From: Octopus sinensis
Taxonomy: Eukaryota
Length of the DNA stretch: 64,000 bases
Assembly: GCF_006345805.1 (NCBI RefSeq)
Contig: NC_042997.1
Coordinates: 124,372,001-124,436,000 of the forward strand
Direction: 5' to 3'
The number at the start of each line of letters is the position of its first letter. Position 1 is the first letter of the stretch. The translations under genes were made by a program, and so were the position numbers. Positions 1,180-57,967 of this stretch are shown here, piece by piece. The notes below the pieces were generated by a model. The model ran no database searches. It had not been told where the DNA came from and saw nothing but the letters and a program-made list of their open reading frames with translations.

Positions 1180-1360
1180 GGTTGAAATTTACAGAAAAAA
1201 AAAGACGAAGACAGGTGTATAAACAAGGAGATGTGATAGTTTGACACTCTGGAAGGTGAGAAAGTCTTTTACGTTTCGAGCGTACACTCTTCAGCAGAAA
1301 AGAACTCGATGAAATAAACAGAGAAAGAATTTAAAAGACTTGCAGATTTAGCGGTCAGTC
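1180..1360 (-). mobile_element. Short (TA)n-associated repeat with hammerhead-like motif (Penelope-like/retrozyme-like family A)
   Basis: Shares aaagacgaagacaggtg...acgtttcgagc.tac.ctcttc..cagaaa with copies at 15412, 29260, 29466, 31727 and 57820. Minus strand reads CTGCTGA-A-GAGT GTAC GCTC-GAAA-CG-TA. Confidence 0.7.
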
Positions 1361-2429
1361 ATATATATAAATATATATATATATGTGTGTGTGTGTGTGT
1401 GTGTGTGTGTATATATATATATATATACAGTCTTTTTCTCTTTCAGTTATTTTATCCCACTTATGCCGAGACATAGGTTATTTTATCTCACACATGCAGA
1501 GTCATGGGTGAGAGAATCAGAAGTCTCTCTCTCCCCTTCCCATTTCTTACTCTTTGTGTCTGTCTATCTATTTACCTGTATGTTTATCTATTTATCTATT
1601 TATCTACTCATGAATACATAAACATCTAAACCATTAACGAAAACATGGAATTTGCTGATACAGGCTCTACCCCGTTCAACAGTAAGGCCGTAGTTAAGAA
1701 ATACATATATACATTGTACCGATGTGTACCGAGTTTAATGAAGAATGACTACAAACCACCGACATCCTTAATTTTAAACGAAGAACCAGGTCTAATGACA
1801 AGACTGATTGAGCTAGTTGAACAACTTCATTCCAGATGCACATGGCATGGGTTACAAACCTTCAACTTATCGATCGATATCAAATATCTTACATAACTTA
1901 ACCAATTGCGATTCTTTAAATATTAAATAAAGTCTGAGACAGATGCATAAAAATAATTGGCATGTTCTCACCAATTGTTCCTTTCCCATACTCCGTGAAT
2001 ATATAATGATTTATTTGCCGCAGTTTAAGACCTCTGAATTGACATGCTGCACATCAGCTAGCATATACCTGTTATTTAAAAGGAAGCCTAAACTTAATCT
2101 TATCAGAAGCTGCGAAGTTTCGTTGTTAACATGAACGCACTAATTATATTGACGATTGATTTATAACAACACAGACACGATCAGAGTTATGTAATATTCA
2201 TATAAATGAGCAACAACAATGTTATTTATCACCTGATTATGGCATAGAATAATCCACGGAAGGATCTAATCTAAATGGAATACTTATACAATAGGTAATA
2301 TACAATGACAATTCATTCTTGGCAATTATATTCCAACGTTTCTTGTAGATATATGAATGCACAGAATTTAAATACTGAACTATAATGTTCTACCACAAAG
2401 TATTCTTTAATAAAATGTTTTATTCTTAG

Positions 2430-2602
2430 TCGTTGTTTTAATCATTAGACTGCGAGCATGCTGCATGCTAGGGCACCGCCTTCAAAATTATCTTAGTTGA
2501 ATAAACTGAAACCAGTACATTTATTTTTATAGCCTGGTACTTATTCTATCGCCTTTTCCGTCGAACCTCTAAGTTATAGGGCCGTAGACATATCAACACT
2601 GG
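2430..2602 (-). mobile_element. Degenerate 3' part of tRNA/CORE-like SINE
   Basis: Reverse-complement similarity to the SINE tail at 36170-36300 (gcaccgcctt, gtacttattctatcg). Confidence 0.6.
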
Positions 2603-2892
2603 TCTTTTATTGCCTAATTGTGACTACAGAACTAAAACACTGTTAAATATATCAACAAATTAGAAAGCTATTATTCTGTGACAGAAGTGACTAGATATAA
2701 ACCATATCCCACTAACTTGTCTTAGAAATATAAGGTCATACTGAATAACTGAATAATGTAATCACACGCGCGTGCGCACACACATACACGCTCACATGTA
2801 TATATGTATATATGAAATACATATGCATGTGAGTGAGCGTATTTAACTTAACACTTCCGCATGCCAGCTCAAACCATGCACATACATATGTT

Positions 2893-2990
2893 TATGTATG
2901 TATGTATGTATGTATGTATGTATGTATGTATGTATGTATGTATGTATGTATGTATGTATGTATGTATGTATGTATTTATGTATGTATGTA
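2893..2990 (+). repeat. (TATG)n microsatellite
   Basis: Read directly from the sequence. Confidence 0.95.
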
Positions 2991-4315
2991 TATGCTTCCA
3001 CCTTGTCATTTCAATGGTGATTTCAGGAAAACCTGAAGCTTCTTTTCAGGAGGTTCAATGAAAGAGACATCTGAACATAAAGTGCCGGAACAAATGCCGC
3101 CAGTATTTGTCTGATGCTCTTACAAATTTCGCCCAATCGATTCGCCGTATTTTTAAACATTCACGCATATACATATTAATAGATACAAACGTATGTGTAT
3201 GCTACTTCAAACAAATACCCGGATTTCCTATTCACCAATAATGCAGATCTATTCAACATATTTTGTTCTTGCTTACAGGTTTCAAATTTACATCTCTTTA
3301 CCTACATTTTTACCAGGTCTGCTTCCCCATATTTGACCCGGAGGTGAAAAATAAAAAATTCAATGCCTGGCATATTCTTATACGTTTGTTTGTATTGATC
3401 GTCCTATTAGTATCACTTAAGGGTATGATTTGTTTTTTAAAAAATGGGGGATTTTATTGAATGTAAATAGTCTTCAAAACCTTTTATCCTGGAAAGCATT
3501 CGTGTTTTTAAATCGTTTTCTTTGACGATAAAACCAGTTTTCGTTCTACTGTTAGCTACAGCACAGAGAAAGTAAATATTACTCTCTGCTGTTTTTTAAT
3601 ACCGTATCGATCACTAAATTAGCCTTTTTTGTTTTGTTTTGTTTTTTGCCTGGGCTATTTCAATTAATCTGTCAAATATATTGCTGTCATCTTTAATTTC
3701 TACAAAACATATGAATGACATTTATTGTCAATAATTCTCCAGTTTTGAAATAGAAAATGGAATCTATAGAAAACCTTTTTTTGTGATGTCTACTTGAAAA
3801 GAATCAAAATATAGTTAAGCAAAGTATATTCTTATCATAATCTCTTTTCTTCACCTTATTATTATTTTGATTTATGTATTAATAAGACAATAATTAAAAC
3901 ACTAAAATCAAAGGAAAATTAGCTGCACATAAAATGCATTTCAAATGTGCACTGATAGACAATAGAAACTCCACGTACATTCATTTACAAAAACGCACAT
4001 ACACACACACACACACAATATATATATATATATATATATATATATATATATATATATATATATATATATATATATATATGGTGATGCATACAAACACGTA
4101 TACATGCATATGTGTATGTATAAATAAATGAATATATACCTATATAAGGAGGTCACAGGATGTGTGACAAAGTAAGTTTTGCGTGTGTGCATATATATGT
4201 ATATTTATATATATATATAGATATATATATTATATATATATATATAATATATATATATATATATATATATATATGCAAATATATGTATATATATATGTAT
4301 GTATGTATGTATATA

Positions 4316-55705: not shown

Positions 55706-56355
55706 AATATATATATATATATATGCATATAGATAGATAGATAGATAGACAGATAGACAGAAGACAGACAGACAAACAGACAGACAGACAGACATGTGTT
55801 AGCATGTGTGTAACCATGTAGTCCTTTACAACTTTTTGAATGGTTGGATCATTGTTAACTAAATCGGTTCCTCCACCATAGGTGCCTAGTGAGGAGAAAT
55901 GCTAGAAACCCTGCGGAACAACATATAATGCCCTTCAAAAGGACAGATGAAATCAAAAGTAGGCTCAACGACTATGTAGTAATTAAATAAAAACATACAA
56001 TTACATGTCCTGGAGAACGGTCGCACTACACAACCCACCTCGGAATACTCATGGAACCCCTAATTCTTGTTATAAAATTTGTCTGGGAGAAGAATAATTT
56101 TATGCAAAACCCGACTCTCTGCTCGTCGGAGTCAATGTTGGGCCAATATGAGGGAAGATCTATCTGGAAATTGGCTGTATTTCTATGCACGCTTTGCTCA
56201 ATACAATCAGTTTCACAAGTTGTAACTTCTTCGAAAAGAGACTGGATTTCTAACAGATCATCGGTACGTTCATCATACCATGCACGTATGTACGCATTTT
56301 TAAACACACATATATACACGCATATTATGCATGAGTATCTGTTATTCTGTAACAT

Positions 56356-56770
56356 AGGCGTAGGAGTGGCTGTGTGGTAAGTAGCTTGCTTACGAACCAC
56401 ATGGTTCCGGGTACAGTCCCACTGCGTAGCACCTTGGAAAAGTGTCTTCTACTATAGCCTCGGGCCGACCAAAGCCTTGTGAGTGGATTTGGTAGACGGA
56501 AACTGAAAGAAGTCCGTCGTATATATGTATATATATATATAGATGTGTGTGTGTGTGTATGTGTGTCTGTGTTTGTCCCCCACAACATCGCTTGACAACC
56601 GATGCTGTTGTGTTTATGTCCCCGTAACTTAGCGGTTCGGCAAAAGTACCGATAGAACAAGTACTAGGCTTACAAAGAATAAGTCCTGGGGTCGATTTGC
56701 TCGACTAAAGGCTTTGCTCCAGCATGACCACAGTCAAATGACTGAAACAAGTAAAAGAGTAAAAGAGTAA
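56356..56770 (+). mobile_element. Full-length type A SINE
   Basis: A and B boxes, CORE-like motif and (AAAAGAGT)n tail; near-identical to the 35901 copy. Confidence 0.93.
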
Positions 56771-56959
56771 GCATTTTCAACATTGAATTCTATTAAACAT
56801 TTAAAGTCAAAAGCAGCTTTAGACTTTACTTGTATTATAATTTGTTTTCATTGGCAACGTCTAAAGGTTACAAATGTAAACTCTTAACATTCATTGTGTT
56901 GTTAGACATCATTTATCTTTTTGTATTATATCCACAATATTGTCTTTAGACGTTATCTC

Positions 56960-57290
56960 ATTTATCATGACAAACTGTATCGAGAGGCAAATATTAGCTC
57001 TCCGTAACTGTAGGCTACAATCTCAGTTGGCTGGTCATGTTTGTTCATTTGAATAACACACAGCTTAGTAATGGAACTATACGGGGAATGCCAGTGGTGG
57101 GTACTACCGGAAATGTTGAGCTTTAGATAAATATTATGATTCTGTTTGGTGCTGCTTCTCTGTTGAGAAAGAATTGTCGAACGGATATACCAGTTGTCTA
57201 AGCTTGTAGAGGTCATGATCTTCAATATATTTTCAAGCATTTCGTTATATAAAATTAATAATGCTTCGCTCTGCAGACGCAGTTCCATAC
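56960..57290 (-). pseudogene. Possible highly degraded Tc1/mariner DDD/E transposase fragment
   Basis: LYNEMLENIL followed by a QQ..S motif resembling Y..ML...L / FQQDGA. Weak. Confidence 0.3.
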
Positions 57291-57819
57291 AAGAATTTGT
57301 AGCATGCTATACGTAGTCGGGAAATTAGTAGGACTAAAATTTTATCGAACTAGTTATCTTTTATGTATTGCTGTCGTTTTTACAAGACGTATATACATTG
57401 CTACACATGCCATTTAAACTTTTACATTCTCCTATATAAATTACCATGGTACACAAGCAACAGTGTTATTGATTACGAATATTTGCCGCGATACACAAGT
57501 AACAATGTTACGAACTACGCCTATTTGCTCTTAACTCAGTAATTATAGATACATAGAATCGAATATGTTGCAGTGGGGCATTAGTAGAAATATTTTGAAT
57601 ATGCAATTATAGATTAAAGTTTAGAAGTTTATGCTAATATACTAATAACGAGAACGAATTGAATGACAAACTGTGTGTGATGTTTTTTTTTATGAGCTCT
57701 TCATGCAAACACACACACACACACACACACACACCACACACACACACACACACACACACACACACGCACGCACGCACATACACAAACATATACATATACA
57801 CATCTATATATATATATAT

Positions 57820-57967
57820 AGGGAGAATTCACAAAAAAACAAAAGATGAAGACAAGTGGTATCGACATCAAACAGATAGATGTGTTAGTATAACGCTCGG
57901 GAATTGCAAAAGTCTTTAACGTTTCGAGCCGTACGCTCTTCCAAGGAGAGAAAATATAGAATATGTA
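57820..57967 (-). mobile_element. Family A repeat interrupted by the RTE insertion (remainder at 59179-59265)
   Basis: gggagaattcacaaaaaaacaaaagatgaagacaagtgg...aacgtttcgagccgtacgctcttcc; the family tail (gtggctagcgatctatcat) resumes after the LINE. Confidence 0.72.

Follow-up and report, generated by a model that had tools for sequence, protein, structure and literature searches.

A preference for (TA)n targets is known for clades of Penelope-like elements (PLEs; PMC8557442). The minimal hammerhead ribozymes (min-HHRs) described for such elements show weak activity, also in dimeric form. Core position 6 is A in each of the 56 representatives of the published min-HHR alignment (Fig. S3), and U3-A8 is the core variant described there (Cervera and De la Pena 2014, PMC4209133). 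The hammerhead of the PLE Poseidon cuts only with protein, and hammerhead-dead Poseidon RNA inserts normally in vitro (PMC11167929). Given weak cleavage and the insertion of cleavage-dead RNA in vitro, the reason why Penelope-like elements keep hammerheads is an open question. We analyzed a 64,000-nucleotide (nt) stretch of the Octopus sinensis genome (assembly GCF_006345805.1, contig NC_042997.1, positions 124,372,001 to 124,436,000; hereafter the window), which contains seven short non-coding repeats with a hammerhead motif of this minimal kind. Elements and motifs of these kinds are well known. What we did not find in the papers searched is a family-level change of A6 to U, as seen here in an abundant and probably Penelope-derived octopus repeat. 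On balance, the repeats are probably terminal-repeat (pseudo-long-terminal-repeat, pLTR) derivatives of (TA)n-targeting, Neptune-like Penelope retrotransposons, with the U6 of the major family likely fixed in the source copies, little self-cleavage predicted, and a crippled ribozyme kept as a cis element.

The window was scanned for the pattern CTG-NN-GAAGAGY-loop-GCTC-GAAACGT. Six complete motifs were found, compared to none in each of 100 dinucleotide shuffles, and a seventh copy (57918-) lacks the first core box (Table 1). The original prediction had placed seven motifs at these sites, giving the H17 position for minus-strand copies and C3 for plus-strand copies. Direct reading bore out its sites, core hexamers, loop variants and ACGU palindrome. 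Hammerhead positions follow the general numbering. The CUGANGA box is present in a single copy (29112+), four copies carry U6, one carries C6 and one has lost the box. An extra nucleotide after A9, the G10.1-C11.1 closing pair, stem II and the GAAA box occur in all seven copies, as does the ACGU palindrome that replaces stem III. Each copy also retains two CpG sites of the motif. H17 is A in four copies and U in three, but never G. The stem II loops read TAC, GTAG (three times), ATAG, GTAC and GTACG. This architecture is supported as a minimal type I hammerhead of the Penelope kind. The copy 57918-, previously called decayed, is not so overall: it has lost its first box by passing from the usual 5' start directly to stem II, and is intact in stem II, GAAACGU and the 3' part.

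Table 1. Motif copies, host exons and reverse transcriptase (RT) remnants in the window.
Feature	Positions	Strand	Details
U6-family copy, subgroup a, C6 U7	1175..1363	-	C3 at 1297, H17 (A) at 1270; one U-G pair in stem II
U6-family copy, subgroup a, U6 U7	15408..15566	-	C3 at 15513, H17 (A) at 15486; TA/CA runs on both sides
Separate canonical-core family copy, A6 C7	28958..29239	+	C3 at 29112, H17 (U) at 29138
U6-family copy, subgroup b, U6 A7	29260..29426	-	C3 at 29383, H17 (A) at 29356; TA runs on both sides
U6-family copy, subgroup b, U6 U7	29457..29666	+	C3 at 29536, H17 (U) at 29563; 5-bp stem I; homology from about 29490
U6-family copy, subgroup b, U6 A7	31727..31879	-	C3 at 31850, H17 (A) at 31823
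U6-family-type copy without CUGANGA box	57821..57953	-	H17 (U) at 57918; stem II, GAAACGU and 3' part intact
Host exon, ionotropic glutamate receptor	12514..12765	-	Residues 696-779 of P0001 (O. bimaculoides glutamate receptor 2), 98% identical
Preceding host exon, glutamate receptor	51945..52151	-	Residues 631-699 of P0001
Decayed, frameshifted Penelope-like (Neptune-type) RT fragment	50867..51240	+	tblastn E 2e-14; hidden Markov model (HMM) of relatives of locus L022
RT-bearing remnant (RVT_1)	57960-59322	-	3' end adjoins truncated hammerhead copy 57918-

The copies have consistent ends. A TA run starts at the 3' end of all seven, for a background chance per position of about 0.06, which agrees with the TA microsatellite adjacency described before. 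The 3' end lies 96-104 nt after H17 in six copies and at 79 nt in one, and the copy at 15408..15566 ends about 20 nt shorter than the others. For the U6 family, the shared 3' end is placed at about 97-104 nt. Four U6-family copies share a pyrimidine 5' start directly after a TA run. The 5' starts of two U6 copies consist of short tandem duplications (29402-29427, 12 bp; 15529-15561, 15 bp). Overall, copies measure 133-282 nt, or about 135-210 nt in the U6 family, which widens the earlier range of 150-270 bp. The 5' side of 29112+ extends for about 150 nt or more, and its end is not sharply defined. A profile of the whole element recovered no further copies in the window, nor did a core-free profile of the 3' part. 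Core-anchored detection hence hid no decayed copies in the window.

By sequence, the seven copies are two families and not one as proposed earlier, with 29112+ (A6) separate from the six others (four U6, one C6, one box-less), to which it is a distant relative with little in common beyond the hammerhead. Outside of the core, 29112+ has no significant blastn match to any other copy, and its tree branch measures 0.81 compared to 0.08-0.34 for the rest. We surveyed contigs from four runs (31,819, 18,007, 11,094 and 21,829 contigs), labelled as four organisms from three studies, matching 28925-29430 at 80% likeness. Both families are abundant in the contigs of all four runs. Summed contig depth at the U6 core was 4.8-7.0 times that at the A6 core, although depth is no copy number. 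The presence of seven copies per 64 kb likewise indicates that the repeats are very abundant. The majority letters of the A6 family have a UCC loop and predict an intact four-pair stem I, so the broken stem I of 29112+ is an apparent private decay of the window copy. Contig depth of the A6 family declines toward the 5' side, roughly as for 5'-truncated retrocopies.

U6 appears to be a property of the source copies rather than scattered decay, as the original prediction had held. It is found in four of the six full copies and is the inferred majority letter in the contigs of all four runs. Among the best 40 of 139 variant rows, the U6 core varies only at N7 (C, 12-16%) and H17 (U, 16-22%). The row for position 6 falls outside of these 40, and the rows are apparently ranked by share, with a computed smallest maximum of 14.4% among the low rows. 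The share of A6 within the U6 family is thus probably below about 15%. The two copies 15513 and 1297 cluster (bootstrap 92) and differ from the rest at six diagnostic flank sites, none of which lies in the hammerhead. Between subgroups a and b, flanks are 56-73% identical, compared to 75-96% for the hammerhead. With the diagnostic sites all in the flanks and the hammerhead better kept between subgroups, U6 is likely older than the split, and the other parts of the motif were likely held afterwards.

A scan of metagenome contigs with the same stem II, leaving positions 6-7 free, recovered at least 119 loci (estimated at about 130), which appear to be host-animal DNA. Viral contigs gave no match to the stem II motif. 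A6 was found in 118 of 120 matches listed and in 102 of 104 distinct contexts listed, leaving one U and one C. These sole non-A6 matches listed (L077 2466-2494, U6 G7; L011 1421-1449, C6 U7) are single copies and probably reflect decay. Five of the six full window copies being non-A6 is far from this foreign background, even if the copies are not independent. H17 follows a similar pattern, being A in about 80% of contig depth compared to 1 of 104 foreign contexts, and A17 co-occurs with a non-A at position 6. In the literature searched, we found no report of a U6 family nor of a natural A6U hammerhead; the PLE variants of Lunse et al. 2017 as well as Repbase and Dfam lay outside of its coverage. 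The main text of PMC13282606 makes no mention of hammerheads or ribozymes.

Conservation of the motif stands out from its surroundings. When the five full copies without A6 are aligned, variation affects 1 of 21 constrained motif columns, compared to 37 of 74 columns in the 3' flank (p=1e-4). The expectation that the core should be better conserved than the flanks was hence borne out. All core nucleotides other than those at positions 6, 7 and 17 are invariant in these copies. The summed depth at the core at 80% likeness is more than ten times that of the element middle.

The U6 hammerhead is predicted to cleave poorly. A natural A6C hammerhead is reported to cleave at <0.1 per min and to be active in Mn2+. 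An engineered A6C change causes an up to 10^5-fold loss at 0.3 mM Mg2+, with recovery in Mn2+ or at 1-10 mM Mg2+. In a full mutational scan, single mutants in CUGA had low activity. In the nearest-neighbor model, a pair between U6 and A15.1 is predicted (P 0.56-0.98 across the four copies with U6), which would close the core by 0.5-1.5 kcal/mol. U6 is also predicted to favor a closed rod, and the distance to the dimer fold is 3 kcal/mol larger than with A6. The same model places the dimer fold 10 kcal/mol above the minimum even with A6, hence its energies only rank variants.

U6 could instead be a working natural variant, cleaving after H17 as a dimer, with the help of the Penelope protein or of metal ions other than Mg2+, and with A17 possibly compensating. 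We consider this unlikely, yet the strongest of the alternatives. The invariance of the other core nucleotides is in its favor, with variation at N7 and H17, which cleaving hammerheads tolerate, and so is the excess of A at H17 over the foreign contexts listed. Also in its favor, the fourth stem I pair is G-C or G-U in the A6-family majority compared to C-G in the U6-family majority. The need of the Poseidon hammerhead for protein and the recovery of A6C in Mn2+ or 1-10 mM Mg2+ point the same way. However, the lowering of activity by position-6 changes would come on top of the weakness of min-HHRs already as dimers, and both the predicted closed rod and the lack of tandem dimers in the window argue against cleavage. 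There is thus only a minor chance that octopus carries a very high-copy family with a still-cleaving U6 core (often with A17), active as a dimer or bound by the Penelope protein, and hence a naturally selected new core in many introns.

The two stems hold up to different degrees. Stem II is fully paired, in line with its proposed retention, with three of four pairs invariant and one varying on one side, without any compensatory change. Stem I was said to be able to form; relative to the 3-5 bp or so typical of min-HHRs, four of six full copies offer at least three contiguous pairs and the others one or two. Contiguous pairs number 1, 5, 2, 3, 4 and 4 in the six full copies, and family majorities in the contig survey have about four. 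Fold z-scores of the copies were not significant (-1.3 to +0.8). In 28960-29680, a stretch with three copies including the canonical one, none of the 21 Rfam matches up to E 10 was to a hammerhead family, and neither was any of the best 150 of 213 matches for the whole window. The matches were driven by microsatellites or inverted repeats, assigned to microRNAs and below gathering score. The sole match at gathering level is a SINE-related tRNA at 18833 (SINE, short interspersed nuclear element). The copy 29536+ is inverted relative to its neighbor 29383-, and this inverted U6 pair (29344-29575) would form a long hairpin in the intron RNA, sequestering both motifs. The hairpin is a possible substrate for adenosine-to-inosine editing and the source of a spurious MIR841 match.

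The base at position 6 might also be kept for splicing, with U6-A7-G8 after a pyrimidine tract serving as the 3' splice site of an intron in the terminal repeat. Pyrimidines make up 80-90% of the 30 nt that precede the core, YAG occupies positions 6-8 in two of six copies, and these two (29383- and 31850-, with tracts of 87-90% pyrimidine) are both sense to the host intron. The intron of Drosophila Penelope is described as ending at helix I. Nevertheless, splicing is a very improbable explanation, as YAG is absent from four of six copies including two with U6, and the A6 family has the same pyrimidine tract.

Several observations weigh against the favored reading. The conservation contrast is inflated, since the flanks are pyrimidine-rich, of low complexity and fast-mutating, and since a block on the 3' side, with 6 of 21 columns variable, is fairly well conserved itself. 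Differences among contigs are dominated by C>T and G>A (62 of 121 places in X1), as for decaying copies. Variation is confined to N7 and H17, with H17 never being G, which is compatible with selection for a fold but equally with selection for cleavage. The covariation score for both stems across seven copies was not above shuffles (59 of 500 as high). The A6 share in the U6 family is bounded by inference rather than by measurement. The prediction of low activity leans on A6C and on a non-Penelope hammerhead, with no A6U cleavage data found in the literature searched. A coding remnant upstream is absent for all seven window copies (tblastn, HMM), and no autonomous octopus element with this terminus was seen in the 64-kb window. 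Some of these points would suit a neutral relic, in which U6 arose once in the source, the copies are truncated or solo terminal repeats, and the motif seems conserved as the sole non-repetitive, slow-mutating part. The dominance of C>T and G>A, the low-complexity flanks, the copy without the first box, the one with C6 and the lack of covariation are all compatible with such a history. On the other hand, the two CpG sites are intact in seven of seven copies, the core-free profile found no copy with a decayed core, and both the difference in variable columns and the depth of the core over the element middle are hardly expected of a relic. A neutral relic is therefore improbable, and more so than a working variant.

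Two observations speak for a link of the repeats to Penelope-like elements: in other animals, hammerheads of the same type sit behind Penelope-type genes, and the window contains the decayed Neptune-like RT fragment. The stem II motif was found 100-676 nt behind a Penelope-type open reading frame (ORF), on the same strand, in 4 of 119 foreign loci listed (L006, L022, L026 and L069). For the seven window copies, no such ORF was found upstream. Pfam recognized GIY-YIG in L022, if slightly below the curated cut-off (E 1.7e-4), as well as RVT_1 in L026, yet nothing in L069 nor in the endonuclease part of L026. RVT_1 is present in most of the longer L022 relatives, several of which have GIY-YIG as well. 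The cysteine linker of the foreign ORFs and the close match of the hammerhead to that of Acropora Neptune suggest the Neptune type; the linker is also found in Nematis. For 29112+, neither the HMM nor tblastn with 5 and later 48 Penelope-type proteins revealed a coding remnant on the upstream side. The RT fragment at 50867-51240 has no hammerhead beside it and is unlinked to the window repeats. Going by its protein similarity, it shows that Neptune-type elements are present in the octopus genome. Membership in the Hydra clade of PLEs was considered and rejected, as Hydra hammerheads have a true stem III of 3-4 bp, whereas the octopus copies have only ACGU (PMC8557442).

We suggest that the U6 repeats are likely a non-autonomous family. 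Their transcripts would be reverse-transcribed in trans by a Neptune-type RT/GIY-YIG protein nicking AT-rich DNA. The start of copying would lie some 90-100 nt past the hammerhead, in keeping with the Poseidon measurements. U6 would have arisen before the split of subgroups a and b, and it might have been tolerated because insertion can do without cleavage. In the source copies, selection could have maintained the remaining motif as a signal, by fold or by sequence, for the mobilizing protein or its promoter, and some residual protein-assisted cleavage is perhaps retained. Inserted monomers in introns are predicted to be inert. A different route would be that of a non-LTR retrozyme (LTR, long terminal repeat), with tandem arrays elsewhere giving rise to multimeric RNAs that self-process to circles, and the window copies being dispersed monomers. 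Retrozymes are described as stemming from Penelope terminal repeats and as having dispersed monomers, and a few single contigs join one copy via the TA run to another. Such joints are rare and at single-copy depth, though, and the window contains no head-to-tail tandem array of the unit, as all copies are monomers or inverted neighbors. Retrozyme hammerheads are moreover described as canonical type I in need of cleavage, while the octopus ones are minimal with U6. A retrozyme is thus a most doubtful origin. The original suggestion of a Penelope-derived or retrozyme-like family can be kept for the min-HHR architecture, but not for a retrozyme-like tandem organization. A crippled cis element ranks first among the explanations, ahead of an active variant and then of a neutral relic, with the retrozyme and the splice site together in last place.

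The copies are located in a host gene. The two exons recovered are consecutive parts of O. bimaculoides glutamate receptor 2 at 98% identity, and the intron of about 39 kb between them contains five of the seven motif copies. The remaining two are inferred to lie in adjoining introns of the same gene, as the window holds no other exon of the 907-residue receptor. Five copies are in sense and two in antisense orientation to the host gene, with the A6 copy among the latter, but numbers are too small for a test of bias. We take the remnant at 57960-59322 to be an RTE-like LINE (long interspersed nuclear element). Tandem repeats of 170-184 bp, presumably SINE-like, are found at 17712-18183, 23695-24042 and 35729-36082, and a tRNA-like match at 18833-18894. 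A Tc5/pogo-like transposase remnant lies at 4716-5308 (Pfam E 4e-4). A Tc1-like transposase remnant (11209-11577) and a non-LTR remnant (37749-38810) were recognized by eye, without a Pfam match where tested.

The octopus genome provides a natural paired test, with a canonical A6 family beside a commoner family that keeps all but A6. If U6 is active, its core would be invisible to searches based on CUGANGA and the consensus of the hammerhead core widens. If U6 is dead, high-copy spread without cleavage would be shown in vivo, and the motif must serve another job. The published descriptors examined demand CUGANGA or complete motifs, so U6-type families would be missed in published counts.

Similarities to described systems are extensive. 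Like the min-HHRs of PMC4209133, the octopus motifs are of type I with an extra nucleotide after A9, the G10.1-C11.1 pair, a short stem I and the ACGU palindrome. Both also share thousands of dispersed single motifs and opposite-strand pairs 100-700 bp apart. The hammerhead of Acropora Neptune (PMC4209133) is nearly the same as that of the A6 family, with a nearly identical stem II. In contrast to these min-HHRs, the major octopus family has U (once C) at position 6, and H17 is mostly A. In Poseidon, the cut is at +26 and reverse transcription begins between +111 and +118, hence 85-92 nt downstream, at AT-rich targets (PMC11167929), which is close to the 96-104 nt after H17 in the window. The Poseidon of Anolis, PAc (Frangieh et al. 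2024, PMC11167929), therefore shares with the octopus copies ends about 90-100 nt past the hammerhead as well as AT-rich targets. However, PAc is autonomous with a canonical, protein-assisted hammerhead, whereas the octopus copies have no ORF and carry U6. Hydra-1_Obim and Naiad_Obim likewise target (TA)n in Octopus (Craig et al. 2021, PMC8557442), and Hydra-1_Obim has a hammerhead near its 3' end. That hammerhead differs by a 7-bp stem II and a real stem III, Naiads are without canonical hammerheads, and the octopus stem II motif string was not found in the supplement of PMC8557442. Non-LTR retrozymes (Cervera 2020, PMC7229834; Li et al. 2026 preprint 10.64898/2026.07.22.740005) are likewise short, non-coding, hammerhead-bearing and related to Penelope terminal repeats, but the octopus copies are TA-flanked monomers with a minimal, non-canonical core. 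The A6C hammerhead of phage Bcep176 (Perreault 2011, PMC3088659; Naghdi 2020, PMC7151607) also is a natural position-6 change. There, C6 occurs in a single-copy phage sequence with measured activity, whereas in octopus U6 characterizes a minimal motif of a high-copy animal retroelement known from sequence.

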